From NCBI GenBank assembly GCA_002633005.1, contig NMRA01000008.1, positions 1,659,620-1,723,619 on the forward strand: 64,000 nt of DNA, given 5' to 3'. The notes beneath the pieces were generated by a model. The model was not told where the DNA came from. It ran no database searches and saw nothing but the letters and a program-made list of their open reading frames with translations. This DNA comes from Phoronis australis. Lineage: Eukaryota; Animalia; Phoronida. The stretch's first letter is position 1. Every line of letters begins with the position of its first letter. Both the position numbers and the translations under genes were made by a program. Positions 3,001 to 50,925 of this stretch are shown here, in pieces.

Positions 3001-3494
3001 TTGTATGTATTTGTATTTGCTATTATCAAACTTTTAAGTTTATTGAAAGTGACGTCGTAATTTTGATTTAATTTATAATAATAGATAATTGACGGAACTC
3101 GCAAAGGCGTTCTTTGAGCCTGACTGGGAAAAATGCCATCTTGACGTCAACATTTCGCTCTCATAAAAACGTAGCTTTGCGCTGGCAACAAAGTGCCCAC
3201 GACCGTCTTCACTAAGACTGGATTTACAACCTTTGATAAATGGGACCCAGAGGTTCACAGACGGTTTGTTCTGGTGTTGGTGCACTCTGCATAATTTGCA
3301 TAAGCCTGTTGCTCTATTAGGATATGTTAAGTCGATAATCTGAAACATCTGTCGTAATACGTAAGTGTATTTTGACCACTAGATGTTTGGATTAAAAACT
3401 AAAATCGATTTCAACGTGGCGGCGTACTGTGGCACCTGGACATGTAGCAAGCATCCTGCTCTGTTTTACATGTATACGTATGTACTTCTGAAGA

Positions 3495-4112
3495 ATGGAG
3501 AAAGTTGCGGTGTTAACTATTTCGTTTCTATTGTCGACGGCAGTTGATGGATTCATGTTTGATTTGCCTGATAAGCAAGTTCAATGTTTTCACGAAAACT
3601 TTACCGAGATTGATACGTTTCACTTCAAATTCAAAGTATTACGGGGTGGAAATCGAGATGCGGACGTGAACATCACAAGCCCCAATGGAAAGTTGATTTT
3701 CAACAGAATTCGAGCAGTAGCTGGAGAGTTAACATTCGAGTCATCAGAGGGAGATTACAAGGTGTGCTTTAGTAATCATTTCTCAGAATACTCACACAAA
3801 CTTGTATTTTTCACATTGACGCCAGCACATTTGAAAACGCTACAAGTTGCGCACGGAAACTATAACCCTACGGTGTCAACCTACCTGGAACATTTGCTGG
3901 ATTCTATGAACCGGAAGTTGGCGGTGATTGTGGAGGAGCAGGAGAATTATCGTCTGCGCGAAATGGTTGGTCGTCTGGCAGCAGAAGACCTCGGAAGCAG
4001 TGTTCAGATGGCATCCGTCATATTCACCTCATTAATAGTCATTACTTTAATGGGACAGATAGTCATACTGAAGCGAAATGTGTTATATTCAAGTACAGCA
4101 CTGAGCATTTAG
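3495..4112 (+). CDS. p24/emp24/GOLD family cargo receptor, TMED3/TMED7 (p24 gamma)-like, single exon, 205 aa
   Basis: Signal peptide (MEKVAVLTISFLLSTAVDG). GOLD domain with FDLPDKQVQCFHE, GGNRDADV.ITSPNG and YKVCFSNHFSEYSHKLVFF. Coiled-coil motif YRLREMVGRLAAEDL, then a C-terminal TM (VIFTSLIVITLMGQIVIL). These motifs resemble TMED7/TMED3. Confidence 0.9.
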   Translation: MEKVAVLTISFLLSTAVDGFMFDLPDKQVQCFHENFTEIDTFHFKFKVLRGGNRDADVNITSPNGKLIFNRIRAVAGELTFESSEGDYKVCFSNHFSEYSHKLVFFTLTPAHLKTLQVAHGNYNPTVSTYLEHLLDSMNRKLAVIVEEQENYRLREMVGRLAAEDLGSSVQMASVIFTSLIVITLMGQIVILKRNVLYSSTALSI

Positions 4113-6216
4113 ATGAAAGAACGGAAGAATGATTCAACGTACCGAAATTTGCTCCCCGTCAACGATTAAGTGAAATGTTACATGATTGCTTTACTCAGCG
4201 TTTTTTACCTGGGTGATAGACTTACTCAAAGCAACGGATTTATCACTGGCGTGGTACTAATGACACGTGTTACTTCGGGTTTCGGAAACAAGCCTAATAT
4301 TCTGCAAGACAAAATCATGCAAGATCAAGCAAGTCAAACACAAGAAAAAATGAACCCCACTTGCTGCTACTTTTGAGCGTTAGATAAAGGCCTTGTCACC
4401 CCCGATCTCAGGTGGTCCGAGACGGTCTCACAGTTATGAATCACTATGAGAACGGGCAGAACGTCCAGAAATTATCAAGTTTGGCCAAAACTACGTCTCG
4501 AATGTGACACCATGCAAGGGCCGTTTGGCTCAGAGTGTGCAATGCGCTGTCGCTTTTTTTTTCTAAATCTTTCTGAGAATAACTCTTGCTGTGACAGGGT
4601 ACTGGGGTAGTGTCAGTGCGCGCTGAAAAACAAACCACGCTCATTATCTGGTGCACGAACCAAGATATCTTGCCGTAATCTCGCGAGAGTTTAAAGGTTA
4701 TGCAACACGTTTCTCGATGCAACTTTTCTTCACGGTGGGTGAATCGAGGACACACTTCAGGTGTACTATACTAGAGGGCAAAAAATATTGATCTCATCAT
4801 GGTCGACCATCTGGGCTTTGTGAAAGTTTCAAATCTCCATACAAAAAGAACACATGGTTGTGAACAGAATTCTACTACAAGCGTAATCTGCATACCGTGC
4901 CATCTGTCATAAGTTATGACGCAGCTGGCTCCAGCTGCGCACGTAAACGACCTTCTCGTCCTAGTCATGTGATCCAGAGCGTTGACATGTTTCATACATT
5001 TAATTGTTTCTTTCCTAGCTATCGTCTCGTTCACTCTTTTTAGTTGAGGACAGCAATGGTAATAAGTTTTAATTTGTTGTCGTCTCCCATTTCTGTCACT
5101 AAATTGTTATTATTTCTTATACGTAGGTCTAATAAATTTGTTTCTCTTTATGTACCTTATAAACCTTTTCGCAATGCGCTTTAAATAACTAAAAAAAACG
5201 ACGAACTTGGTCAGCATTCAGCATTTACCCGACTGCTCCTATTGCAAGATGCATCTATTTCCGTACTCTGCTATCGCAATAAGTCTATGTCAGCGAGTGT
5301 TCCTTGAGTCGTAAATTTTTGACTTGCCAAATCGAGTTTTTTGTGAAGCTCAATTGTTAATTGGACCAACTAAATGATTAAAGACATCGTGAACTGAATT
5401 GAATTTTTGTGGCCATAATTAATGCTGAAGATTATCCTTTTTAAGTGGCTAAAATCGAAAATCGAATTACGCATTTTCCTCTCATAAATTCGCGATAGAA
5501 TTATATTTCCGTTACTAATAAGAACATCGAAACCATCAGTGGGTTCAGAGTTAATTGGGATTGGCAAACCATAAAATTGCGAACTCAAAAATGGCGCGTG
5601 TAGCTCTGCGCATTACATGTGGCGTGCTCATTCCGTTCTTTAAAACGGTTAAATATTCAACAATGACAGCTAAACGACGTTGAAATGCTCCTTTGAAGAT
5701 GTCTTTGCATGCTTCTAATTTATGCTCATTTGTAGCAGGAAATAAATGACAATGCTATTTGAACTTCGTTTACGCTAAACAAAGTGCAGTTGTATTCATC
5801 GACAACTTGTAGATGTTAAAACAAAAAATTCTGCAAATAGGTGACCTTTGCACTAATGACGTACCTTGAGGGCTCACGTAGTTCGCACCATGCAGTGTTA
5901 TTTCCCAACACCACGTCACAGTACCAACTGTACTTAGTTCAGTGATTTACGGCGGGTCATTTTCGACACAAATCTCGTTCTAAAAACATTTCGCAATTTT
6001 CAACGTGCGCATCGTCCCAAAATCTTGTGTTTCTAACTAATCTGACCAAGCAATCACTGAGATAAGGAATTAGTGTGCAAGTTCCATTCATGCAGATTTC
6101 GACAGAGTAGAAAATGTTTGGGTATTGATGACGTGTGTATATTCACAGTCAAAATTCAGCCAGAACAGCACACTACGACACGGACAGCGTAATGCTGTTG
6201 CACTTCTAATCATTAG

Positions 6217-6376
6217 CAGTGGCGGATTTAGAGGGGGGGGGCAAATGGGTCCATGCCTCCCTAAAATTCTCCCAGATTACATTTGGCAGCTCGGGGGTGC
6301 GAATGTCTGATGGGCAAAATCCTGGCTAATACTCTGCTGCCCTGCCCCCCAATTAAAAAAACTGGATCCGCCCTTG
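6217..6376. mobile_element. Short MITE-like non-autonomous DNA element
   Basis: Imperfect terminal inverted repeats cagtggcggatt / ggatccgcccttg, internal G-run and C-run, flanks attag/attaa (near-identical). Similar right ends occur at about 7750-7769 and 36812-36833. Confidence 0.55.
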
Positions 6377-6617
6377 ATTAAAGTTCATCTAACTGTTAGT
6401 TCAGTGAACTCTATGGAACACTGAAAAACTTTTTGTGAAATGGTTCAAATTTATATTTAATTTAGATTGTCAGGTAGCCGTGGCAAGCAGATGTCAAGTA
6501 GAACATCAAAGGAACAGGTTATTACTTGATAACGATGCATGTTTTAATGATTAAGAAGATTGTACGAGTGTTAGTTGTCTAGGAAGCATGTACTAATCAC
6601 ATTTGAGGGTACGTAAA

Positions 6618-9600
6618 ATGTTCACTGAGGAGAAACTACGCCAAATTTGTTTCGGTAAGTTAAATGCTGTTGCCCGTAGTTTTTATCTCATGTAAGCATA
6701 GTTACGCGTAACCAGTTTTAACAAAAATTGTTTCGACAGATCCAGGGTCTGTCTCGATACATCACATTATTGAGGGAATTGCGCCGTATGATTTCAGCCT
6801 GAGTTACGTTTTTCCCAGGGATAATTTTGTCACAGTTCAGTAAACTATAATACTCCAGGAAGGGGGGTTATTGGGGCCCTGAGCACGGCGTTTGGTTCTC
6901 ACGGGAAAGCTCATAAATAAAACATATAACATGACACGAAAATGCAGGCGCGTCAGTATATTTTGTCACCCATGGTATCTATATTATGCTGCAGCGCGGC
7001 CCTCTGAAGTTTGACGACATTTACACGTATGAAAGCGTCTTCGACCCAGCTTGTCATAGATGGTGTTGGTTTTTGAAAAGCCAACAATTACAAACTGTTT
7101 TGCAATTAAAGGTAAAATAAGTTGAAAAACGCGTAATTTGACTGCGGTGGGACCAGAATCCATTCAGGGCTCAGGGTAACAGAAAAAAACCGTAAGCGGC
7201 GTGAGGCAGATTCAGGATGGAACATATCTCCTATCATTTTAGACCTAATGTTCTAGCGCTTAAAATCTAGCAGTCTCCTTAAATTCGGCACTTTTCCGTA
7301 GGAAACAGTCGTGTATTTACAAGTACTTGCATAGGTGTGAGAAAGCAGACATGATAAAAAGTAAGTTTTACAAAATCAGCGTGGCGGGACACACGTCACT
7401 TCGCCTATGCAGTCTACAGATTGGCGAAATGCAGTAAATGCGTTTAGAAACAGACACAGTCGAGACAGACAATCTTCCCCCTTCACGCACCTCACGAGCA
7501 TTCTCATCAATAGTGTACTTTTCTCACGAACGCATTTGTGTCATACAAACTGTAATTCTTTTCCTGCGAACCACATTCAATTCTTACGAAGTCGTTATTT
7601 CTCATTAACTGCATTTGGTTTCACAACAAGCAAGATGCATGCGATGTCCGGAATTAACACCTTTTAGAAGCTCCGTACTGTGCAATGCACGAGCTCGGTA
7701 CGTTGTATCGAATCTGCCTGTACCCCGAACTGCCATGGCTCCCTTGGCCCCCCTCTAAATCCGCCAGTGCACATGACCTATTTGTGAGAAAAGAAAGTTG
7801 TAGATGAGAACACCCGTGCAGTCCGTGGGAGAGGAAAATTGTCTACGCTTCATTTTTAAAAATACGTTTAGTGGAACCAAAAACTTACAGATAAGATCAT
7901 TCAAATACCCAACATATTTTGCAGACATATATCGGATTGACTCTTCACGAAAAGGGGTTTAAAACGTTGTTATCTCTCGGTTGAAGAAACTCATTTTGTT
8001 TCACTTGAACTCATCCTCTTTCGTTCTTTGAATATATTTGATGTGCATGCAAGTCTCCAGAGGGCGTCATGAAAGTATCTTAAGGCTTAAAACTAGATTT
8101 TTTTGTTTTGTAAAGTTCTCTAGATTTTCAATCAAACAGAGTTTCATAAAGTCTATAATCAATTTAGGTGTTTTGAGCGATAATCAAAATTTCACAACAT
8201 TTGGAGCATCAGCAATGATTTTTGTAATTTTTTCGCAAAAATGCTCTAAAACACAACTTTTTAATTTTTTGCGGGTATATCTTGTCACGATATATTCGAA
8301 ACAGTTGTATTTATTCAAGCTTAAAAATGTCTTAAATAATGTTAGGCTACGTTTTCGTTTTTAGCAACTTTACTCCACGGCAAATCACTCAATGAAATGA
8401 CCACGTGTGGTATTAGAATCAGGCGAGTGTACTCATGTTTGCCACAATGGAAGTCGTAGTTAAAACGGATATTACTGAGAAGTTGGGACATTCAAAGGCT
8501 TTAAACGTGTTTGGACAACTGAATTAAGGGGGGGGAATCACTGGGTTAGCTGTCAGTATTCAAAATCTTGGAGAATCAAAAAGTTGCACGAGCTCACGCC
8601 CACTTAAGGAAAGCCATATTTTTGCAAAGAACAGGGGGCGGTATGAACGGGGAGGGGAGGCATGAGTCCTTTACAGCCACACCATCTGTGCTCCACCGTC
8701 GAACTTTGACAGATCTGTTCATTATTTTAAAAATTTGTTTTGATAGAAATAACGTTTTTATTCAACAGTCCTTGTGTTTGCTGCTACAGTTGACGCTGGC
8801 AACATTCGCAACGCGTCTGACATTGTCAAGAAGGACGTCGTATCGAGGGACCCTAATGCCTACTTTGACAGCTTTGGTACAAACGTTAGCCTGGAGCACG
8901 GGCTGGTCATTACGGCGGGAAGCCAGAAATTTCTCACATCTTGTCAGTTTTTTCACAACGTGAAAATCGGCGACGCGTGCATAACAGCGGAACTTACTAA
9001 AGGTGATTGACGGTGGATAATTCATTATTTTTTACCTTAATCTTTCAATAGAATTACGTGAAGATATCTCTGGTGGACATTTTGTACGTTGGTATTTTCT
9101 CTCTCGAGAGAGCATTTTGGCAATAATGTGGCCAGTTTTGGTTAAGTAAACGAAAGAAGATACGACCTGTGGGGGTCGAGTTGGCTTTCTGTGCCTGATA
9201 GTAATGTTTGCAATTTGGAATTATTTCGGTTACTTACTTCCTCAGTTACCCAAGTAGAATTATTACGTTGTTCTGCAATGTAGAGCGGCACCCGCAGACG
9301 TAAAAGAAAATTTCCTTACCTTTCTACTTCAAATTGAAGTCAAAATTATTTTTGGCATTTTTGCACTGATTTTGAGCGAACTTGAGGTAAGTTTTCATTA
9401 TTCTGTGCCCTAGTGCATTATGGCTTACGTGGATAATTGCCTAGACCTAGTTTGCACTTGATGACCTCAGCAATAAGATTAAAAGCTCTAATATGAACTC
9501 AAGTTTTATTAGAAATCTCGTGTTTTACTCGAGTTTGTAGCTCGCAGAAACTCGTATGCACAAACTGCAATGTACTCGAGCACAGACTAATTACCACTTA

Positions 9601-10157
9601 TCTCGACTTTGCACTAAAAGTAGAACAGAAAATGACAAAATTATTTAGAATTCAAATACTAGACCACGGACCCAGGAGTAACGGCTGCAAAGGCACCCTC
9701 ATCAAAGATTGTCCCATTTGCTTTGCCTTAACAATGCAAATCTTAACTTTAATAAAGTGGCCTTTAACATTGTTCAGAAGTTGAATGACCTCTTCCAGAA
9801 TATTGGACCGATTTTATAAGCGTGGATAGACCAACGGCTACTAACGCAGGCGACAACGAGACTATTGCAAATATACTGGTATGTAAAATAGTGCACGTCA
9901 CGTACTGACATTGAGGTGAAGAAAGCGATAAGCACATTATAATCAACTTTATTCCTCTTCAACTTTTTCACTTTTAAAATTTCCACGTGTTGAAAAGCCA
10001 TCTGAATCGTCTACAGTCACATAAAGCTTCTAACGCCGATCCTATGAGTTTGTGGCTGAAAATGGCCATATGGGTCGGCAGTCGGGCGGTCACCATCATC
10101 AAAACCATCACCATAACCATAGTCATCGTCAATATCACCGTCATCGCCATGGCTACT

Positions 10158-10241
<84 letters not shown>

Positions 10242-13200
10242 GTCATCATCATCGTCATCATCATCATCATCATCATATCGATGTCAAAACCAACATTGTC
10301 ATTGTCATTATCATTGTCATAACCATCGTCAACGTCATCATTTCCATCACGGGCATCTCAATTGCCGTCATCTTCATCATCATCGTCGTCGTCACCATAA
10401 TTAACCACCATGTTCGCTTCAAGTCCGTTTTAAGATATAACGTTTACCTTCTAGAGTCATGGAGTAGATATTTGTGGCGGAGCTCAACCTCTCAAGGCCG
10501 TGTGCAAAGTAAAAGGCGTCGAATTCAGCAGATTTGGCCAAGACTGTAACACACCACCAGACATTCTTAGCGTCCTCTGCAGTCCAAATTACGGCCTTGT
10601 GTGCTTGAACGCTGAACAGACATCAGGACTCTGTCATGACTATGAGATCCAGTTCTTATGTCCCAGTGAGTGACGTTTCTCCAGATATCTTTCTGTTGAT
10701 AGATTTGTAAACTGACACGGAACCAACGCTATAGTCTTCAGGGGGGTGTATATAATGAATTTTGATAGTTTTTGAATTGCATTGATTATTCATTAACATG
10801 TTCATGACAGAATGAAATTGATTTGAAAAGTGCACAGCTGTCATTTCAACACACATCTCTGGAAGTTCCAGTAGCTCACCCTAAGAATCTGGGAGCTTAA
10901 ACCACAAATTGGCCATTAACCACACCACCACACAAAGCCCCTTGTGTCAAAATGCACAACAGACCAAGCAGACTTACTTGATTTGGGTCTGAGAAGCAAT
11001 CAAATTTTAAGAAGAAAAGCTCAAATGTTGCAAAATGCCAACTGAAAAGTTGGCTATTTTACGATAGAAAGTGCCCTCTGGTGTCTGTTTACCATGTTCA
11101 GTAAAAACTGGAGTATTATATGTATAGAATTTCAATGAAAGTAGACCAAATGCAAACTGTAAAACTTTAATCACGGTTATTTCAGTTCATTACTTCACAA
11201 TAGTGGCAATACCTCAAGTTTATTTCTTGGCTATCTTTTGATCAATTTTTACGAAATGAAAAAGTTTGCAACCTAATACAAATGAGCTTCAAATACATGC
11301 TACGGATTTTTTGAATTGATTATAGTTAAGTTATTTTGGTATGAAGTTGAAATATCTTTTTGAATTTTTTTACTTTTAGTAAGTTTATTTGCATAAACTG
11401 AAATTAACAAACAAACACAAACACATTCACTCGCACAGTCACACTTCCAGCTCTGCTTGAATTTATACTGAATGTATAAAAGGGTTTCAAAAAATCCCAG
11501 CAAGTCAGGGGGTAATTCTCTAGATTTCATGGAATATTTTGACTGAATGTTGTGCATTTGCCAAATCTCAAAAACAAACTTAAAAAAGCATTGTTATGAT
11601 GGCTTTATGGTCATAATTGTGTATTTTTGACTTAAACAAGACTATTGGAAGATTTTGAAATCTATGACAGCATTTTTTTGGAGAAGCCATCGAGAAAAAA
11701 TGAGCTTTTTTGAAAAACTAAATACGTTTATTAATGAAAAACTAGTCACTCAAAAACAATGTTCTTTGCTTTTTCTCAAGTCGTGAGTCATATTTAAGAC
11801 GATATATATTAAAGTTTACACATTTTTAAAGAGGAACATGGAGAAACAAACAGTGTACCTACCTCCCTTAAACGTGTATGGGGATTAGAAACGAGATTTT
11901 TATCCCGCCCTGCCCGTTCTGCGCTGATGACATAAGAGCGCAGCCGTCAAATGAGTGTTTGTCAGGAGTCCAGTCAATACGAGTGCGCTGATAATTAAAT
12001 TTACACTTTGTGTTTAGCGCGGTCAGTTTCATCTAATGATTCTTACGAATGCAAACTTGGAAAACTGAAATACATGAACTCTAAAATGGCGTGAATTAAA
12101 TATTCTATGTTTGTATTTCAGGCACTATTATGCCGTCTACAGTCAAAGGGAATCTCATTACGGGAATAAATGGTTTAATCCCAATGTCACAGCTCTTCCC
12201 AATATGGATGGCCGTGAGGCGTGCAAAGTGGGAAACAAAGAGAGCATTTGTACGGCAGAACAAAGGGAAATATTACAGATTTTGCTTCACCAAAGTATTA
12301 GTCAAATATTCCATCGACTGTGTGGAACCCGGCGAGCTTCGTCAATATTACGAAATTCGCTTGATTACTCTCGCAATGAGAGGAAAGGAAACCCAGTTTT
12401 TCATATCCGCGATCTGGATCGAAGGTACAACACTCAAAGTTCTGAGGAATTGGTTCGAGGCCGGCCACGCCATCGAAACAAAGAAACAAATAGGCGGCAA
12501 TGAGAAAACAGGCAAATATTACTTCGGCTCATCTCCTGGTAGGCCACCACTCTGCGTAACAGCAGTACCAGGTACATTGGATTGTTTACTCATGAACGTC
12601 GACATGAAGACAATAAACAATGGCGGCTCCTCGTCAACCACCAAAAATGATCCTCATAAGTTCAACTGTGCCCAGGAAAATGCAGTCGAAGTGAACGGGG
12701 CATTTTCACCTTTGAACGACGCGCATGGTCATGCAACGACAGCTATTAAGAAGCTCAAGGCTGAATTCGGAGAAGAATTGTTCAAGGACTGTTTACCCAT
12801 GTCTTTGCTTGTTCATTACCAGGGGAACTGCGATGGCGCGTGGTGGAATCATGCCGAGAGACGAGCCATGTTTTGCGACGGTAACTTTTTATATCCTCTG
12901 GCCTCTGATTTTAATGTGGTAACTCATGAGATATTCCACTGCGTGGTAATTGAAAGATCAAGCCTGAGCTATGTGGGTGAGCCCGGGTGCATACACGAAG
13001 CGATGACTGACATTACTGCTGAGTGGGTGGAATTCGCTACTTTCGGACAAGTTGACTGGGTGGTAGCTGGATCCGTAACCAAGGCTCCAATCAACGGTAT
13101 TCGGAATTTCAAAACGCCATCTGTTGACGGCCGGTCTATTGATAACTTTAGTCAGTACGAAGCAAGCATGGATGTTCACTACTGCAGCGGTTTATACAAT

Positions 13201-13431
13201 AGAATATTCTTTATTCTGTCCAACATGAGTGGCTGGACAGTTACCAAGGCCTACTTTGTGTTTTTTCAGGCTCACTTCGGCTTTTTCAAAAGGTGCACCT
13301 CTCTTAGAGGAGGCGTTTGTCATTTAGAAGATTCTGCAACTGCACTTAGCCTGAACAAAGCGGACGTCACGAAAGCTTGCTTGTTAGTTGGTTTAACGTG
13401 TAAGAGGGACGACCCACTTGTGTGCAAATAA
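6618..13431 (+). CDS. Secreted M4-family (thermolysin/LasB/vibriolysin-like) zinc metalloprotease prepropeptide, 526 aa; exons 6618-6654, 8769-9002, 12122-13431
   Basis: Exon1 is MFTEEKLRQICF+G|gtaagt. Exon2 follows ttcaacag and reads (V)LVFAATVDA-GNIR...LTSCQFFHNVKIGDACITAELTK+G|gtgatt (end of signal peptide plus FTP-like propeptide). Exon3 follows tatttcag and reads (G)TIMPSTVKGNLITG... (PepSY-like), then a catalytic domain with GGNEKTGKY, VNGAFSPLNDAH, VHY, HEIFH (12925-12939), HEAMTD, DGRSID, MDVHYCSGLYNRIF and VGLTC. Both introns are phase 1 and the spliced length is 1581 nt, in frame. Exon 3 is firm; exon 1 is the least certain. Confidence 0.9.
10090..10410. repeat. (CAT/ATC)n trinucleotide microsatellite with degenerate flanks, in intron 2 of the M4 gene
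   Basis: Near-perfect CAT run at about 10157-10277, flanked by degenerate CAC/CGT/CAT triplets. Confidence 0.95.
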
Positions 13432-14424
13432 AGCCGGCCTTGGTGGCCATTCTTCAAAAATCCCGTTAATTATGGACAACGAACATTCTTGACTAGACAA
13501 TTACTAATTAACAAGCTATTCAGGGATACGTTTTGTTAAAGATCGCAAGTCCGGTCGCAGCTATGACGGTCGTTGCGTTTTCCTGAACAGTGAAAACCTT
13601 TCAGTTGACAGGCTAAACCTTTAAGTTGGTAATTTTTACAAGGCGGTGTAGATGCCTCAGACTAAAGCAAACGAACGATGTTTTGTATCTCTACGGATGT
13701 ATTACGTTTATGTATCTGCCAATACTTTTGTGCATCTGGTAATACAACGTAATACATCGTCAAATCTGCAAAGATTGAAGAAACTGCATGTATACAAAAC
13801 TGACACTATCACAACTTTACGCAACAGGTTACACTGGGCCACTTTATATTTTACACGTGCTATTGATAAAAGCCATGGTAACTGATATGTTTAGTTCGTC
13901 TGTCCGCTTTCTTAAAGAAGACGGGCAGACTTGAAAACTTCCTTCACGAAGAACCGTAACGGGGCTCTCGTGTTTTTAGCTCAGGTGTTTGGTGCAAGGG
14001 GCCCAACCATGAGGTCATGCACCGCAAGTGATATCAGGCTACCAGCATTGTTTTTATATATGGTCTTTAGTTAACTCGGCGTACTATTGAAGGTGCAATG
14101 GCCGAGCTTTGATGGTTGAATACTTTTTATAACGGCGTTTTAATCCCTTTTCATGTGTGTGATTAAGTTGAAAAAGTTAACACCTTTGAACCCCCAAAGA
14201 AGTTTTGTTGTGCCCGGCTTTTAACACTTTAATACAAGTGACGGACAAACAAGTCGTGTCTCTTGATGTTTTGCCTCATAGTTCCACGCCTGAAGAAAGG
14301 AGACTGCGAGCGAGTATATATTAAGCTGTCTAACAGAAAGTACAGTCGGGTCTCCAACCAAGTTTATTTAGATGAGGAGAGATTTTTGGTTCCACAAAAA
14401 CTTGATAGTTTGTTATTGCTCGAA

Positions 14425-14532
14425 ACCATGTCGACGAATAAATGAAACGCCGTGAGAGGTCAGGTCAACTTGTAGAGACAGCTTACTACCATGGTCGACG
14501 AATAAATGAAACGCCGTGAGAGGTCAGATCAA
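14425..14532. repeat. Short direct duplication (2 x about 45 bp)
   Basis: accatg(g)tcgacgaataaatgaaacgccgtgagaggtcag[g/a]tcaa at 14425 and 14488. Confidence 0.85.
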
Positions 14533-19814: not shown

Positions 19815-21126
19815 TGAAATAGACACTGTTGTTACATGTATTGTCACACGCGGCACACATTGTTACCCCAGGGGAGACGTATAAGCTGTCACATTGTGAT
19901 GGTACATACTGTCACTCCCTAAGAACATCTGCCTTAGCGAAACTGAATAGCTGTGTAGATGTAGATGTAGACCTCCGCGAAACGCGTAGGCCTTAGCGAA
20001 GGCCAGCGAATGCTAATTTCCACGAGAAACCTTCCCGGTATAGACGAGGTGTGCGTGCCGGGTATAGAATATATATCCATAGTTCGACTAGGGAGGGATA
20101 CCCAGAGCTAGTAACCCAAATGTTACTGTTTGCAAAAACATCGCTCCTGAAAACTTGGCTGGCATCAGACCCGCTCAACATGGTCTTCATCGATCTTTCG
20201 GTCCCGTTCCACTGCACAACATCGTTCGGGGGGGTTTCTTCCACTTTCTTGGGTCTGTCCCATTGACTCTGGATCTGCCTATGTGTTAAAACCCCTGAAA
20301 AACAGGCAACGAGTTTCAACACAGTTGGGGAGCGACAATAGATGTCGATGTTGACGGCATATTATTGTCGCACTCATATAGCCTACTGTCGCCCAGGCGA
20401 CAATGAGACTAAACGCATAAATATTTCAACATGGAGTCTAAGCTCGTTGCTGTTGTGGGTGTTCTGGACAGTCAAAAATCAAAATTGGCACAGTGTTTTA
20501 AGTCTGCATCTCATATGACGTCACGTACCATTAGGATCCTTTCTGGCAAACGCATTGTCGTTTTGGTTTAGGCAAAGTGGCAGATACTGTTTGAGTCTAT
20601 AACCTACGTGACACGTAACTGACCATCAGAATTCCATCAGGCAAACACGCTTTCTTCTTCGTTTAAAGCAACTTTTCTCAAACTTGACAGTTGACATATT
20701 TTCCAAGACATTTCTCCCCATGTTGTTGTTGTACCGTGTCTCTCCTTCATCAAGCAGACAGACCACTCGCAGCAGAACCGTATCAATTACAAATGCGACG
20801 CTTTATTAGGTTAGACGGCCTTATTTTTAACAACATGAACAACGCTGTGTCCTTTAGTTCTTCTTGCCCTCTAGTAACCATCACCTTTATATATACAATC
20901 TCTTTTGCCATTTGAAAATTACCTTTATGGAAATTATTGGTTTACCAAGTTGTGTTTTCAGAGACTATATTTTCTGAACTGCAAACCAAGTTTTTAACTT
21001 TTTGCGTTATCAGTGTTTTTGCACTCGTGTGAATTAAGTAAAGGACTAAATACAAAAGCTTGAATATTCAAAATTTACTTCACGTTCTGTTACTTTCCAG
21101 GCGTTATACCGCGATATTCTGCCGGT

Positions 21127-24100
21127 ATGAATTCAACCACTATGCGTCCCGGCGAGCAGGAAACGATGTCGGGAGTGTTATCAACCATGGCAGGCATCAT
21201 CGTGAATGTTAGCAACTCGACGAACTACAATAACACGGTTACTGAATTTGACAAAGTTATGGGTTACACGCTTATACCGATATTTATCGTCACAGTAACT
21301 TCCAACCTCCTCACCATCGTCGTTGCCTACAAACTGGTCTCATTGAACAAAAACATAACGGACTTCTTTGTTTTCTTCCTTGCATGGACAGATCTTATCC
21401 TCGGTTTACTTGTTCTACCCATAGTGACCGCGTCTCACTTCAACGGAGGAATTTTTGGAGGCGTCCCCGTTTGCCACTTTAATTTCTTCGTCGTCAACGC
21501 CACAGTACAAGCTTCAGCATTTCTGATTCTCGTGATGTCAATCGAACGCTGGGTAGCCTTCGTCAAACCTTTGTATTACAAATCTCGCTTCACATTCACT
21601 ACAGCTAAGATCCTCATCACTACTGTTTTACTCTACAGCACGGTGACGTCATTGCTACCATTATTCGGTGTTGGCGAAATAGGGAATTTTGACTATGTGT
21701 GCATGATAGACTGGCAAACGAAGGAGCTCGATGGTCAGATCATGGTCTGGTTTCAAGTGATTTTAGGACTGGCGAGTATACTTGCAGTTTGGTACTTTAA
21801 CATTGCGGTGGCATGTAGTGTGTGGAGAATGCGCGTCAAGAGACAAGGAAGGACGAGATCACATGACAATGCACGTGGTAAAATGGAAATCAAGTTTTTC
21901 CGACTAACAGCGTGTGTGGCTATCTTCTACTCGGTTTGCTGGGCGCCGTATTTGGTAAGCGAATTCTTTAACCTCAGGAAAATGGACATTTACTTGAACT
22001 TTAAAACTTTTTTAAACTCGCGGTCTACCACTGCGAACTGTTGATTTAAAGCGCTTGATCAGTTAGCGTTAAACCGCTAATTGATCTCAACTTTTTCGCA
22101 TGCAGATGAGACGTGTTTTATTGACTTGGAAAGGACTGTCAGTTCGTTATAATTGTTACAGGCCATGCAAACTCGATACATAAACCGACCCAATATGACA
22201 AGTATGTTCTTAAAGATACTGTTTCCTTTATTACTTTCACTAACTTAGAACACAGAATGTACTGTGTCAGTCGAAAGATATTGCACAAATTAACACTTTT
22301 CGTAAATTACAGCCACGTATGTACTCCCGTTATTTTATTGCTATTTTTGTAAATTTATAAAAAAGTGTCGTGCGGACCTTCCGCGAAACCTCATTGTTGA
22401 CTCTTTTCAGTTACGTGTTATCCTGTTGGATATCCTCTGCATGACACTAATGACTATATTCACATACGTTTTATTCCAGTTCAGTGTGGATATCCCCAGT
22501 ACGATGCTTTATTTCCAAATACGAGTTATTCAAGTGCAGTGTGTATTTCTTCAGCATGATATCAGTGAATGTTAACAGATACTGTAAAGCTTCTATCAGT
22601 AGCCGACTTATAGACGCCTCTCTCTACTGGAATTAAGCCGAGGGTCTAGGTATTAATAAACGCCGGATCTCTAATAGAAGCACCCTGTAATAGAGGCACC
22701 TCCTCTAATAAAAGCCTCCCTCTAATAGAGACCGGGTTTCCATGTTGTCTGAATGCCGTCTATGAAGAAAACAAAGTTGCAAAGGGTAGGCTATGTAAAA
22801 TTGTGCTTAAGAACGTGTAACAGCACGATACGACCTTGGACCGGACGATTGGCAAAGGCAATTTTTTTCGTTTGGCATCGCACAATTTGTGCTTCACTGC
22901 CCTAGGACCGAAATAAATAAACTCCTCCCTGTAACAGAGGTCGGTTTTGGAGCACGTCTGAAAAAACAAAGGCCCCGGCTACAATTAGAAGCTTTACGAT
23001 ACGTGTTATTTTGGCATAATATTGTCAATCTCGAGTACAGTTTGGACATCCTCATGATATTGCCAACCTTTTCAGATACGTGTTATTCTCGTACAGTGTG
23101 GATATCCTCGAAATGATACTATAGACTTCGTAGTGACCCGCCTGGCGGCATCCAACTCAATGGTAAGCGTCTGCTAAAACTTGCATACTGTGCAAATATT
23201 TTCAGCAAATGCAGAAAATAAAGTCAAGTAACTCAGGGTGGTCCTAAGTTTGTGTAAACATACTTTTGTCCCGAAACATTGACAACTATACATCGCACGC
23301 TGTCTCCACTAACTTGGAACTGTCGGTTAAAGCAGCACTTGCCCTGTTAAAAACTAAAATCGGATCATGTATTTTACCGAATCTCATATTTGTCTCATCC
23401 GAGTTTACCGTGCGGAGATTCTGTTTCCGTTACCAACAAGAATATCCAAACGATCAACGACTCAAGAAAATGGCCAGCCTTAACATCGTGAAATCCAAAA
23501 TGGCGCACCTACGAATTTCTTGTGGCTTGAGTTGCCGGTTCATTCGGCAACAGTTCAAGATTGGATGAGCGTGGTAATGCATTCAAGCCCCAAAGCGCAG
23601 AAACGCCTCTTTAATTGTTGTAACTATTGATCAACAATAATTGGAAGACAATTGTGGGATACTGCAATGCTAGACTTAATTGTGCTCACCCTTGTGCCTA
23701 ATTTCTCAGAACACAGTCATCACCCGACCAATCACGTTCATTGCTTGTTACCACAGCCTAAGGTCATAATATGTTAAAGACGTTGAAATTTCGCGACCCC
23801 TTCAGAAATTTTAGAATTAATGCAGGGCATTTGTAGAATTAATTTTGGATACATTTTACATTGTGCTCCTTTCGGGTGTTATGTAAAATTTGATTGAATG
23901 AGTAAAGACGGCATTAAATCCATGCTTCCTGACAAACAAAATAAGATTTGGATTAGGCCATTTCAGTGGTGGCTTGAGATTCCATGAGTTTGGTCTGAAG
24001 AATAACGATAAATCAGTTCTTCCAGTGCCCACAGATCATTTCTAAGCCGAGAAATGAACAAGAACAGTTTTATAACAGTAACTGGCCTGAATCAAATTTT

Positions 24101-31284: not shown

Positions 31285-31958
31285 GGATAACGCTTTTCTT
31301 GTTGAACGGAAATATTTGACCTAGATTTTATGTTTTAGGATGCGCCCTGGGGAAGCAACATGCAGTATAATTATTATTACAAGGAAGTACTAGGAGACCT
31401 CCCGTGCAATAGGAGTCGACACTATAAAATGGATACGTTACTGAACATGTTTTGTAGACTAATGGTCGCGAAAACATGGATTGTTATTAAAACCACCGAG
31501 ATCCTCTCAGCAGTTGGTTGATTTGTTTTTGTTTGTTTTTTTTAACATACACGCCTGTCATGGCTGAGTAGTGTTGTAGCTTGCCCATAGATGTCACCCG
31601 ACTATGTGCCGAGTGGTTACTNGGATAACGCTTTTCTTGTTGAACGGAAATATTTGACCTAGATTTTATGTTTTAGGATGCGCCCTGGGGAAGCAACATG
31701 CAGTATAATTATTATTACAAGGAAGTACTAGGAGACCTCCCGTGCAATAGGAGTCGACACTATAAAATGGATACGTTACTGAACATGTTTTGTAGACTAA
31801 TGGTCGCGAAAACATGGATTGTTATTAAAACCACCGAGATCCTCTCAGCAGTTGGTTGATTTGTTTTTGTTTGTTTTTTTAACATACACGCCTGTCATGG
31901 CTGAGTAGTGTTGTAGCTTGCCCATAGATGTCACCCGACTATTTGCCGAGTGGTTACT
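31285..31958. repeat. Tandem duplication of about 337 bp joined by a single N (probable assembly/haplotype overlap artefact)
   Basis: 31285-31621 is repeated at 31623-31958. The only differences seen are one T-run indel and one substitution; N at 31622. Confidence 0.9.
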
Positions 31959-42555: not shown

Positions 42556-45117
42556 CAGACATGAACAAAACCATATCCATGAGTCGCTTTTTCTCATATC
42601 CCATGCCAACTTAAGGCTTTATTTATTGTGTGAACTTTTTTCAGCTAATAACCACGAATCCCCACGAAACAATTTACGGTTTTGGGTTCTCTTATTTCTC
42701 ACTGCGTTAACTAACTTGAGGTCTCATGGTCCATAGGTGGCGCTCAACAGTTTTTGTTGATTTTGGGCTTAACATAACAGGCCTTGCAGGTTCAATAGTT
42801 TGTTCCACAGGATATACCAAAGATTTAAAAACACCTTAGAAAAGCCTATTGAAACTGGTTTCAAAGTTAATTTTCTCATCTTTTACAAGTACTGAAAGTG
42901 CAGCAGGCTTCGTAAAAACAAACAAAAATAACCAAAGCAGTTATGTAGTTTTCGTCCCAAAGCCACCGTTTCCACAAGCGATTACTACGAACTGAGAGAC
43001 ATTGCATTCAAACTCCTGAATCTCCTCGTGATGTAAAAATCAGTAAAGTGCGGGGTGTCGACCAGTCAGAATTTGTACGATAAATTTCAACTTACGCTCA
43101 TAAACAGTGAAAGATTTAAGAAAACTCATGACTGAGACAGAAGTCGGCCAAGGAGTCAACAAAGTGACAATCTTTAACGGACTCAAAAATCAAGAAAATG
43201 CCATTCGTAGCCTTCACATGCAGCATAACACGTAAAATGCACCGCCAACCCAGCAAGCGCCAAATCAAACAAGACACAAAATGGGAAATGTTGTATTTCT
43301 GATACACCAAGTATTCATTGCGGGTGAATTTTTCTCGTTCAATATGTACTGCAACTGAATTTTGATGTTGCTACCATGGCATTGTAGATAGATTTTTTGA
43401 CATCGCACTGCTCCCAGGTGAAGTCGTATTAACCGACGTGATCACATGCAGTGGGCAGATTTTCAGTGCGAATTATAGCCGGTTATTCACAAAAGATAAA
43501 CTCCGACATTCCTGCATAGATCCTGATCACCTGAGTATCAACAGATTCTCATTTGGCCTCTCTCGGGATATGGATGGCAAAGTGGAAATGTATTTTGCTC
43601 GGGCCCAGGCAGGGCGGCTTGACAAATTTCCGCATTGTTAGATTAGTGAATGACGCAGTCTCCGCATATAAACTATGGTACCTATGCTAAGTGCAGGTGT
43701 GTGTACACGACAACTGATACAATCTCAGCTAAGAAGTGATCAGAGAAAAGATAATAAGATGAATGCGACTTCGTGGAAAATCTATAGTTACACGGGCAGA
43801 TTGTGCACGAGACATTCATTTAATGCGCTTTTGTCAATTTATGAGATTACAGTTTGTAAATATGTATGGAGTAAATACCTCAACAGATTCAGACTTGATC
43901 ACGTGACCTGTGTAATTACAAGTCCGCAAAGATTTGTGCGCCGACCGGGTCTCGACCTCGGGACTTGGGACTTGTACAATGACAAAGCTGCATTTTTCTC
44001 AATAATAATGTCGTTTTATTTTAATGCAACTGTTGATTTTCTTTGTAAAAATCCCATTTTGACAGTCTTTCGTGCCAAATCGGATCTTTAAAAAATTTCT
44101 GAACATAATTTTGGAGAACATTGCAAAACCTGCATTACCTAAAAGGTTCATTTAAATCAAATCAGCCATTTTTAAAAAAAGATATGACGTTGTGAGTTTG
44201 GCCAAATTTGGACATTTTTTAGGGTTACAGATTACCTTAAAAGAGAAATGCATTTTGAAATAATAGTAATAATAACGAAAAGGTCAAAAGACCAAGTCAT
44301 AAATTTCAGTGAGTACCTGACCTGTGACGGTTTCGCTAACCACAAAAAGCCCCAGTGAAACACGATGTCGACATTGCCACTTCTACAAACCAATTTATAC
44401 TGAATACTGAATAGAAAAGAAAAACGTGTAGGCCAAACTCTTTCAGCACTGTTGAAAACAATTATCAAAAATAACAGTCACAACGTAGTAATGTATAATT
44501 TGAAAATGTATTGTGTATGCCTTGCTAGACACACTTGGGCGCACCTGAGGTTATATTTGGAGTGAGCTGTTCAATAACTCTTGACTAAAATTACTTGCAA
44601 CATACGAGTGCTGCTCAGTGGTATGAGGCCTGCGTGTATTCTCGTGTGACATACCCCGGATGAGAGAGCGGTTACACTGTAGTTGCGCTATCGGATTGGA
44701 CGTACACGCTAATCTTGCAATTCATTCCGACAATGCTGCCTGAAGCCACGGGGTTGCTACAGGTACCCCCGCATCACCGCGAGCAGTTGGTGAACAGTTG
44801 ATAAAGTCAGCTTATCGGAAATTCACAAGGTCGGTGCTCGAATTGATAGGGAAGGGTTGGTGCATCCCTGATCCTCTGTCGTTGTACTGGCTACAAACCT
44901 CTATGTACAGGCACATGTACCGTGTAACGATCGCGCTTCCATCTTTTGGCTTCCCCTGATCCCTAAATCCCTGACTTAAGACTCCTTCTACTGCAGATTA
45001 GTAGGTGTATGTTGTATTTGCCTACCAAACACTGCTGTGTTCAGCTACAGTGCTCTTACCGACTGTATATTTGCAGATGACGTGAGAAATTCGAAGAGCC
45101 AGTAACACGGATTGAAC

Positions 45118-48046
45118 ATGGCTGTGTGCAAGAAGCCGAAGATCTCACTTCTTCTGTACTTTGTCGTTATACTATTCAACTTGTCTTCGTGGATAGACTT
45201 GGACGGCGTTTGGGCCGAGTTACCTATATTGGTGCCTCGTTTGCCAGAGGGATGGGCACTGCCAAGCCAAGTCACAATCTGCTCACAGATTGCCGCAATA
45301 GGACCGTTTATTTACTTCATCGCAAACACTATCAAACCTGGCTTCATCAAGGAATCTGTAGCAATATATACGGTGATTGGCGTAGGATTCACCGGGTGTA
45401 TATTATTGACTGTCTTCTGGGATAAAACAGCGTTCATCGCTGGTCAAGAGAGGAGTGTAGCGTTATTTGTCCTGTCCTTTTTCCTTGCATTTACGGACAA
45501 CACGTCGACAGTGGCATTTCTCTCGTACTTTGCTATACTGCCGGCAGAATACTTGTCGGCGTATTTTGTCGGAGAAGCGCTATGTGGACTCATTCCGTCG
45601 GTCGCATCCTTAATACAAGGAGCCGGAGAGTATGATTGCGTTAACATAACTAAAACAATTACAATGACTAACAGTTCGACAAACCTTACTACCAACACGA
45701 CTGTTTACAGTGTCGAAGCGGTTATGAGGCCGCCTGTATTTTCAGTAAGCGTCTTCTTCGGTCTTCTCGGCATCATTATGGCCACCAGCGGCATTGCGTT
45801 CAGCTTCCTCCATTATCACCCGTGGTTTAAGAAGTTTCACGTGATCGACCCCGAGAGTTTGCCACAGAGAGAGAATGGGAAGACCAACACAGTTCCTTTG
45901 TACCAACACTCGTCCGAGGAAGAAGAAACCCAAGAAGAAAAGTTGGACTGCACAACGGCCTTGTCAGGCGAAGAAAAGACGGACTCGAGAACGAATGGTC
46001 CTCAACAGACGGGCTGCAATGAAAAACCTTTAATGTCTCGCCGACTGTACGCTGGACTTCTACTGCAGTATGGATTCCTACAGTCGTCTAGATACGGGGT
46101 ATTATACAACTTGCAGTCCTACTCCTTACTACCGTACGGTACGTTTTTTAAATAGAAATGCAATCAACGATTTACTAAAATCTGTACATAATACGGATAT
46201 GATGTGCACAAAATTTTCTGTTAAAGCCGTCTGTCAAAAATCAACTGTCCTCACAGCCGTATTTGCTCATTTAAAACAGCGTCATCGCATTCTAACCCTT
46301 TCTTTGAAATGAAATTGGTTACAAAAAACACCGTGACGGCCATAATGTCTTGGCGCCTGAAAGTAACCCGCCGTGCTAAGCAACACAATGGGCGACATCT
46401 GAAGCAATACCTTCGCAAACCCTTGAAGTCATTGCTAACCTGAGAACGGAAGAAGATGAGACCGATTCCTTAATGGCACGTTGCCTTCATCAATAATTGG
46501 GTTTATTGCCTCTTTAAATAGAGAAAATAAGATTGACTTGCACCCCTTTTCCTACAGTGGAAAAATCAAAATTAATGAACTCGCAAGTAGGCGTGACTAG
46601 TCCTTGTGTATTACCCCCTCACTAGTTTTAGGCGAATGTGAAAAAACACCGTTCATTAAAATAAGAGTTTGAAGTTAATAGTTCATTATAAGCGTTGACA
46701 ACAAATAACTAAAACTCATCACTTCGAGATTGACAGCAAATGATCAATACCTGTTATTTTGTAGGACCGATGGCTTATAGTCTAGGCAACCGCCTGACTA
46801 CAGTTATGCAAACGTTGGGATGTATCCTAGCTTTATTCTTCCCAACTCGATCGGTCAAAGTTATAACGACCATTACTCTTGCCGGCACAGTCCCCGCCAT
46901 ATACATAGCAGTATTGGCGCCACTTAGTCCCAATCCACCTCTTAAGGATTCCGACATTGGGATCATTCTCATGGTGAGTTGAAATGCTGGTACTTTTGTG
47001 TAATCAGCCGGGTATTTTGAAATTCATAACTGTATGCGGAATCCAGCTGTAGGTAGTCAGTTATTATCGTTCCTTACTGACGTTAAACTTGAACAACTAT
47101 ATAAAAATTGTTTGGAATCAACCATCAAGTAATGACGCAGTTGCTTCAAGACAATTGTGAGCGACTACACGCTTCATTTCAAATTTGTCGGGTACGGGCC
47201 CATTTTGATTATCATTTCAGTTCCGACCAAATTGTATCACAGTGGAAAATTGAAAATGTTAAAAGTACCAAGCACAAATTTGCTTGGAAATCGTGAAAAA
47301 GCAACTTTCGGGGCCGTTTCATCAAAGGTCCTTCTCACGCTCTTAGCTAAGACAGTTAGTCGTAACTTCGATTTTACCAGCAAAAAGTTTACTAACATGG
47401 CTTGTGAAGACAGCCGTTAAATTCATTGGAAACGAAGCATCACGTTCACAGTCGGTCACAGTCGTCATCAGCTACGACTGGGCATACGACTTTTGATAAA
47501 ATGTACCCCAGCGGCAATTCTTCCAGGGTTCAGAGGGCTTAAATCCCTCACCAATCCATGACTTCGCAAACCAAAAGCACTTTCACCGTGTTTTTGATAG
47601 CCATGGGGCACGTTTTATCAAAGGTTGAATATACGTCAGGTCGTGGCTAGGTATCTTTTTGCTAACGCGATGCTGCGTTTCTATAGAGTGAAACCTATGA
47701 TAAAACGACCCCTGGTGTTCAGAGAAGATACAACAGTGAACACTGGGGTAGGGCACTTTTTACGGACAAACACGCCAGATTTAATACGAAATCAATTTTA
47801 AAAAATTCCCAAGACACTTACCTTTCCAGGCATTTGTTTTTCCAGATTTCTGCGTGGCTTCTGATGTCATTTTTATGGGGATACTGCAAGGTGGGGATAG
47901 CTGTCTTGATGAAAGACCAGGGGAAACGTCACTTGATGATGACAGGGACGGTTGAAGTGGTTTGCATTCTGCTCGCTTCCATCGTCATTTTCGTTCTGGT
48001 TAACATCACTCATTCCTTCAAAGATGCTCCGCAGTGTGAAGGTTGA
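45118..48046 (+). CDS. SLC52 family riboflavin transporter (RFVT/GPR172-like), 476 aa; exons 45118-46138, 46765-46973, 47846-48046
   Basis: Family motifs SSWIDLDGVWAELP, LPEGWALPS, DNTSTVAF, YFVGEALCGLIPS..SLIQG, FSVSVFF, QSYSLLPYG and LSPNPPL. Splice phases 1 and 0 are consistent (1431 nt). Confidence 0.92.
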
Positions 48047-50557: not shown

Positions 50558-50925
50558 AGTGTTCAGGAACCAAAATATGACACAATATAGCACTTTTAGG
50601 CCACAACGCAGCACTCAATGTATGTGTTGCAAGACCACAACAGGGCTTCAGAACAATTTTAAGACCACAATATAGTTCAGGACATTCTGACACCAAATTT
50701 CAATTCTCAGTCTGTAGTGTTTCACGACCAAACCGCTCAGAACTGAAGCCAACACCACAATTTAGCATAAAATGAATTATAGTGTTCCGAGACCATAATC
50801 CATCTTACAACAGAGTAACATGACCGCAGTCCAGTTCAGACTAATGTTCAGAGACCATAATCTGACTCATACTACACTTCCAACATCACAGCTTGGTTCA
50901 GAACAGTGTCCCTAGACCACAAGCA
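50558..50925. repeat. Degenerate minisatellite (period about 31 bp) running from the IMMT 3' region into its last codons
   Basis: Units resembling agtgttc..agaccacaat at about 50558, 50622, 50653, 50717, 50781, 50812, 50844 and 50905. Confidence 0.6.

Follow-up and report, generated by a model that had tools for sequence, protein, structure and literature searches.

A spliced gene for a predicted M4 metalloprotease with a CysD-type module in its propeptide in the genome of Phoronis australis

A 64,000-nucleotide stretch of the genome of the phoronid Phoronis australis (assembly GCA_002633005.1, contig NMRA01000008.1, positions 1,659,620 to 1,723,619; hereafter, the window) harbors a spliced, expressed gene of five exons whose coding part runs from 6618 to 13431 on the plus strand. 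Its product is predicted to be the secreted precursor of a zinc protease of the M4 family, with a Mucin2_WxxW (CysD) domain set inside the propeptide; this CysD-in-propeptide design is the most unusual feature of the gene. On balance, we favor the interpretation that the protease precursor of this animal gene likely comes from bacteria, that the CysD module was likely inserted into the FTP part of the propeptide by exon shuffling, and that it would likely tether the enzyme, while latent, to mucus or matrix.

Structure and transcription of the gene

Transcripts were examined in a contig set (X1), taken as RNA by guess, and in three RNA-seq runs (X2, X3 and X4) with the same species label; all four were mapped onto two stretches of the window, 3300-10000 and 10430-14400. 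The coding exons, all on the plus strand, are 6618-6654, 8769-9002, 9799-9878, 10455-10665 and 12122-13431, and together they form an open frame of 623 amino acids. The four introns are all GT..AG, with phases 1, 1, 0 and 1 in that order, and RNA backs three of the four junctions, two of them as listed joints. A preliminary description, made from the DNA letters, had proposed a protein of 526 amino acids encoded by three exons spliced at 6654/8769 and 9002/12122. The two upstream exons and the first splice are confirmed by RNA. The second splice is not: exon 2 joins 9799 instead. While the frame of the three-exon model is open, the two exons that it missed (9799-9878 and 10455-10665) are covered by RNA, which rules it out as the main form. 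An isoform with the 9002/12122 joint, which would be in frame, was not seen; neither of the mapped stretches contained both of its ends.

The coding part of exon 1 (6618-6654; residues 1-12) provides the n-region and the start of the h-region of a signal peptide predicted by hydropathy. An in-frame stop is found at 6594-6596, 24 nt 5' of the ATG at 6618. A two-codon upstream open reading frame (ORF) at 6588-6596 on the plus strand is in frame with the protease start; it may lie partly outside the mRNA, as the X1 contig seems to start near 6590. Intron 1 (6655-8768; phase 1, 2114 nt) contains a host repeat near 7732-7776, and its joint, 6654/8769, is present in an X1 contig (depth 43.5) and in one X3 read. 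Exon 2 (8769-9002; residues 13-90), which has RNA cover and both joints, encodes the rest of the predicted signal peptide, with cleavage judged by eye to occur after about residue 22, and the first part of an FTP-like propeptide. Intron 2 (9003-9798; phase 1, 796 nt) is removed at 9002/9799, a joint found in an X1 contig (depth 58.5) and in two X4 reads. Exon 3 (9799-9878; residues 91-117) encodes the N-terminal part of the CysD domain, with the motif W-x-x-F, and exon 4 (10455-10665; residues 118-188) encodes the C-terminal part, with seven cysteines. Both exons are covered by RNA.

Between them lies intron 3 (9879-10454; phase 0, 576 nt), with an ATC microsatellite at 10158-10276. The 9878/10455 junction has no listed joint and is deduced from the agreement of two observations. 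One is that the X1 contig that contains exons 2 and 3, 268 nt long, reaches genome position 9878 at its letter 200. The other is that the X1 depth of 48.2 in the bin 10430-10562 equals what is expected from the last 69 letters of that contig on 10454-10522 plus the next contig (from 10493).

Intron 4 (10666-12121; phase 1, 1456 nt) is predicted from its GT..AG ends and the open frame, and an X1 contig departs from the genome at 10666. Exon 5 begins with the remainder of the propeptide (12122-12468; residues 189-303), made of the last FTP strand and a PepSY-like helix/sheet domain that extends to the predicted His303/Ala304 autocleavage site. The predicted mature catalytic domain follows (12469-13431; residues 304-623), with RNA cover and a stop codon at 13429-13431. 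The probable 3' untranslated region (13432-14442) is marked by X4 sense reads and by an X1 contig that reaches 14340, and the first AATAAA occurs at 14437. A 39-nt duplication at its likely end (14430-14532) has an AATAAA in each copy. First mates of raw reads on the exons were found on the minus strand only, as expected of a plus-strand transcript. Two considerations weigh against this gene model: the joint 10665/12122 is missing from the listed joints, with further X1 gaps in exon 5, and raw-read depth is low (mostly 1-5x in X3 and X4, less than 2x and patchy in X2).

Comparison of X1 with the genome provided a view of selection on the coding exons. Differences were sampled as those listed, with 141 and 26 further rows outside the count. 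The encoded residue changes at 7 of the 31 listed differences and stays the same at the other 24, against an expected silent fraction of 0.297 (p 5.5e-8), and the ratio of non-synonymous to synonymous differences (pN/pS) is 0.12. All three differences listed in the CysD exons are silent, and so are 14 of the 19 in the catalytic domain. These allelic differences point to purifying selection.

The catalytic domain and its origin

The preliminary description had assigned the segment 12122-13431 to the M4 peptidases, with motifs colinear with those of Pseudomonas LasB, and this assignment is well supported. The ORF 12100-13431 scores above the Pfam cut-offs for both Peptidase_M4_C (59.2 bits; cut-off 24.4) and Peptidase_M4 (34.7 bits; cut-off 22.4). 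The closest solved structures are those of Pseudomonas elastase (E 2e-51), vibriolysin MCP-02 (E 6e-45) and Legionella ProA (E 3e-36), and thermolysin comes far behind (E 1e-13). A structure model of the exon 5 product, built on a 93-row alignment, has a predicted local distance difference test score (pLDDT) of 92. It superimposes on LasB with a VIA Z of 41.2 and a root-mean-square deviation of 1.7-1.8 Å across 297 residues, and on thermolysin and fungalysin with Z of 36.5 and 24.2, respectively. Foldseek also retrieves the two-domain thermolysin fold (E 1e-27; target-normalized TM 0.93-0.95). Since M4 homologs made up the underlying alignment, the model leans to the M4 fold.

M4 peptidases are mainly bacterial secreted enzymes. 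The named homologs of the protease are all bacterial except one, labeled Idotea baltica and flagged as a contaminant, and identity does not exceed 39%. Protein searches listed 120 of 133 matches in one case and 25 in another, and 150 of 2429 in a broader one; among those 150, ten were looked up and three had names, all bacterial. The homolog clusters among those listed were 92-100% bacterial. A blastn search against plasmids gave no match. The protein, cluster and metagenome-contig searches yielded no confirmed eukaryotic homolog; these searches are weak for eukaryotes, and the neighboring TMED gene was likewise left without matches.

A maximum-likelihood tree of 74 rows was built from 38 of 75 genome loci, 25 selected proteins and 10 outgroups, using quick trees, and an approximately unbiased (AU) test was run on 34 rows. 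In the quick trees, the protease groups with LasB-type rows against outgroups of thermolysin, Streptomyces and protealysin types, with a support of 100 in the Shimodaira-Hasegawa-like approximate likelihood ratio test (SH-aLRT). On this sequence evidence, it belongs to the LasB/vibriolysin subgroup of MEROPS family M4. Free quick trees place the protease within the LasB-type group, among long branches (SH-aLRT 89-92).

Several features of the tree limit the case for a position nested in bacteria. A placement of the protease outside all 27 LasB-type rows, as their sister, is not rejected by the AU test (p 0.665), and constraining the tree to this sister position improves it by 7.4 log-likelihood units over the free quick tree. 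Furthermore, the branch of the protease is long (2.2-2.8), and the sampling was made of rows other than animal or other eukaryotic M4 proteins. The preliminary description had proposed horizontal acquisition, to be seen as nesting in bacteria. The gene is indeed integrated in the host genome, spliced and expressed, while its nesting in bacteria is not proven by the trees. Because the sister position is kept by that test and eukaryotes are poorly reached by the searches, transfer from bacteria, at some depth, is likely rather than proven.

The same data lend themselves to another explanation, a serious rival though in our view less likely: the protease would belong to an old eukaryotic or animal M4 lineage, derived from one ancient transfer or from early inheritance and lost in vertebrates and many other groups, and the CysD insert alone would be local. 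The long branch, the identity of 39% or less to any homolog and the sister position kept by the AU test would all fit such a history. GC content at third codon positions is also compatible with long residence, as values in the protease exons (0.41-0.56) are near those of host genes (0.46-0.54). Automatic annotations in some genomes of molluscs and other marine invertebrates name elastase-like or hemagglutinin/proteinase-like M4 proteins. The old-lineage explanation is weakened by the failure to find a confirmed eukaryotic homolog, in searches of limited reach for eukaryotes, and by the absence of any M4 term from two files in the supplement to the hemichordate genome paper (PMC4729200). On the side of an old lineage, Table 2 of a whelk study, in the accessible part of that paper, includes two gene products that bear the name vibriolysin and are labeled bacterial (PMC10913743); at a guess, some could be host M4 genes. 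The gene described here is also a warning that transcripts of vibriolysin-like type in data from invertebrates may stem from the host itself.

Whatever its origin, the enzyme looks intact yet altered, as judged from its sequence and structure model. The zinc motif H456-E457-x-x-H460 (12925-12939) is kept, and its columns are 100% conserved among 266 homologs. The third zinc ligand, Glu480 (at 12997), and Asp484 of the ExxxD motif are also kept, as are Tyr471, Arg515, His540 (at 13177) and Trp429, which we take to be the equivalents of the accessory catalytic residues of thermolysin. These nine residues sit in columns that are 98-100% conserved in the same 266 homologs. The cysteine pairs 342/370 and 587/614, conserved in the family, are present. 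Of the columns conserved in at least 90% of the homologs, 56 of 79 are kept and 23 differ. The points that weigh against an ordinary M4 enzyme are Gly426, which replaces an Asn conserved in 95% of homologs, and cysteines at 439, 461 and 477 in place of near-invariant glycines near the active site; therefore, activity or specificity may differ. The mature domain contains 14 cysteines, 10 of them new, and the secreted precursor contains 25 in all, an odd number.

These changes admit an alternative that we regard as improbable, namely that the product is a pseudo-protease whose catalysis is weak or altered, or a protein that binds mucus or matrix, with CysD as the working part. The substitution of Gly426 for Asn, the three Gly-to-Cys changes around the cleft and the 23 of 79 highly conserved columns that differ would be in agreement with it. 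On the other side, the three zinc ligands, the catalytic Glu, Tyr471, Arg515, His540 and Asp484 are all kept, the His/Ala processing site is aligned with that of LasB, and silent changes make up 14 of the 19 differences listed in the catalytic domain.

The CysD module within the propeptide

Exon 4 matches the Pfam family PF13330 (Mucin2_WxxW) with 36.6 bits (cut-off 22.4) and reaches the end of the profile (88/88), while exon 3 covers profile positions 1-25 (E 0.0075). Exon 4 also matches the CysD structures of MUC5AC and MUC5B (E 1e-5 to 6e-5); exon 3 by itself has no match in the PDB. A single-sequence fold of exon 4 gave a pLDDT of 42 and was discarded. An observation that weighs against a standard CysD is that the domain has W-x-x-F and seven cysteines, compared with WxxW and ten cysteines in the CysD of MUC2, as described in the available part of the source (PMC3195396). 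By profile match, then, exons 3 and 4 encode a PF13330 domain, though not a canonical mucin CysD.

The preliminary description had proposed that the upstream exons supply an FTP-like propeptide. A Pfam search found neither an FTP nor a PepSY match in the propeptide, and the assignment was obtained with a custom profile made from 244 homolog propeptides. When exons 3 and 4 are left out, the profile scores 6.6 bits, a value reached by none of 789 scored shuffles, and the match runs over the join between exon 2 and exon 5. With the insert, the score falls to -1.2 bits. The span between FTP landmarks is 29 residues without the insert and 126 with it, as compared with a median of 28 (range 24-46) in the 244 bacterial propeptides; the insert is thus 97 residues long. 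Foldseek also picked up chain 3nqz_A, the propeptide of MCP-02, though weakly (E 0.046). Against the FTP assignment stands the behavior of exon 2 alone, which scores at chance level with the custom profile (729 of 912 shuffles as high). Exon 2 aligned to entire proteins in a scattered way, and that alignment was discarded.

CysD is bounded by two phase-1 introns, each no more than about two codons from an end of the domain. Symmetrical phase-1 modules are the usual exon-shuffling unit of animal extracellular proteins. Sequence comparison thus suggests that a CysD module splits the FTP propeptide and that it was likely added through exon shuffling. No second copy of either M4 or CysD is found within the window.

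A different order of events, in which the prokaryotic donor already supplied CysD and the introns are later gains, is highly improbable. PF13330 is found in none of the 145 homolog rows listed, and the C-terminal motif of CysD is found in none of 447 proteins and ORFs. One weak phmmer match (P0236, E 0.025) lacks the motif, so that none of the homologs examined carries CysD. In addition, phase-1 introns so close to both domain ends would be rare if introns were gained by chance.

The arrangement favored here, exon shuffling into the propeptide, suggests how the precursor might work. The predicted signal peptide would direct it to the secretory path, and the FTP and PepSY parts of the propeptide would act as chaperone and inhibitor. 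Cleavage at His303/Ala304 is predicted because the LasB chain begins at the residue aligned with Ala304; such autocleavage would produce an enzyme of 320 amino acids, to which the cleaved propeptide may remain bound for some time. In M4 proteases, the propeptide is both chaperone and inhibitor, is cleaved off autocatalytically and stays bound afterwards (PMC10017501, section 4.3). As CysD is N-terminal of the cleavage site, it would depart with the propeptide; its part would thus be to hold the latent complex or set its position rather than to steer the mature enzyme. Holding might involve contacts between CysD domains or between CysD and mucins, or else a disulfide via the odd cysteine. In the accessible parts of the literature, CysD is described as forming non-covalent dimers and acting as a cross-linker (PMC3195396), and as binding calcium and contacting VWD1/C8-2 (PMC7599080). 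In the simplest combined view, the propeptide would tether the latent protease to mucus or matrix, and its loss would set the enzyme free. A likely job would be proteolysis in the mucus layer, be it mucus turnover, digestion of trapped food or defense. A role of CysD in folding or in sorting to secretory granules fits equally well.

The full scenario can be offered tentatively, as one that may well prove wrong in some of its parts: an animal captured a bacterial elastase-type protease that degrades mucus and tissue, and a CysD module was shuffled into a turn of the inhibitory FTP domain, giving rise to a zymogen anchored in mucus, which shedding of the propeptide releases or activates. If true, it would represent an undescribed kind of protease targeting through the pro-domain, and it would provide a dated order of transfer, intron gain and domain shuffling within one gene. 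The FTP chaperone domain apparently tolerates an insert of 97 residues, and the insert may be regarded as a clean case of a foreign-type gene remodeled through phase-1 exon shuffling. The gene also offers a direct test of CysD function outside mucins.

Genomic setting and comparison with known systems

The neighbors of the protease gene are of animal type. Upstream, a TMED/p24 (GOLD) gene occupies a single ORF at 3495-4112 on the plus strand and shows same-strand expression in X1 and X4; a protein search with it gave no match at E <= 1e-10. Downstream, also on the plus strand, lie an exon of a rhodopsin-family G-protein-coupled receptor (21064-22044), whose nearest solved structure is the prostaglandin E2 receptor EP4, and the exons of an SLC52 riboflavin transporter (45106-48046). 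Exons of mitofilin (MIC60) are found on the minus strand at about 50898-52274. The latter two are ordinary eukaryotic genes. A family of short host repeats, abundant in the RNA runs, has copies in opposite orientations upstream of the protease gene (6210-6375) and within intron 1 (7732-7776). The claim that host repeats in introns and animal neighbors argue against contamination was borne out: the intron 1 repeat is common to the upstream DNA. Since the neighbors are animal genes, contamination is very unlikely; bacterial contamination, mis-assembly or a pseudogene can indeed be set aside, for all that the named homologs are bacterial bar one. The transcripts show spliced GT..AG joints, reads of the sense strand come from independent runs, the locus shares repeats with the host, the animal-type neighbors are transcribed in those runs as well, the ORF is intact and silent differences are in excess.

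Two further features of the window were recorded. Its sole N (31622) stands between two identical 258-nt copies (31285-31958), probably an assembly-gap overlap, and nested inverted repeats of ~360 nt in the mitofilin region (54205-54564) resemble a miniature inverted-repeat transposable element.

A literature search retrieved neither an animal M4 protease nor an M4-CysD fusion; the gene tables of two compendia of horizontal gene transfer (PMC13342648 and PMC12637581), which may list such genes, and most subscription papers were outside its reach. The accessible part of an amphioxus paper on horizontal transfer contains no protease term (PMC13350694). Matches to 'Peptidase_M4' in Perkinsus were rejected, as they correspond to M41 and M48 in the part of the source at hand (PMC2868825). 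M4 proteases have been regarded as secreted enzymes of bacteria and as virulence factors; the spliced and conserved copy described here shows that at least one animal has this class in its own protease set.

Among known systems, the gene recalls the novel microbial-type genes that Simakov et al. (2015, PMC4729200) described in deuterostomes; these are bacterial-like genes that have become established amid the host genes of marine animals that feed by means of mucus. It differs from that set in that no M4 term appears in the main text or in two supplementary files of that work. Like the fungalysins (M36) of fungi, the product is predicted to be a secreted eukaryotic gluzincin with a related fold (Z 24.2); unlike in the comparison with LasB or thermolysin, the match is far weaker, with 11-13% identity. 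The propeptide of fungalysin is of FTP type.

Likeness is closest to LasB (1ezm, 8cr3), MCP-02 (3nqx, 3nqy) and ProA (6ya1). The predicted order signal peptide-FTP-PepSY-catalytic domain is shared, as are the GGN start motif, HExxH with ExxxD, the cysteine pairs 342/370 and 587/614 and the predicted fold (Z 41.2), with identities of 33-36%. In contrast with those enzymes, the protein described here is encoded by an animal gene with four spliceosomal introns, carries CysD in its predicted FTP domain, ten extra cysteines in the mature domain and Gly426, and is devoid of a C-terminal PPC or PKD domain.

The module itself resembles the CysD of MUC2, MUC5AC and MUC5B, and also that of CILP and Oikosin 1: its Pfam score is above the cut-off, and its C-terminal strands match MUC5AC and MUC5B. 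Unlike mucin CysD, which stands between proline-threonine-serine (PTS) stretches, it occurs as a single copy within a protease propeptide, with W-x-x-F and seven cysteines instead of ten.

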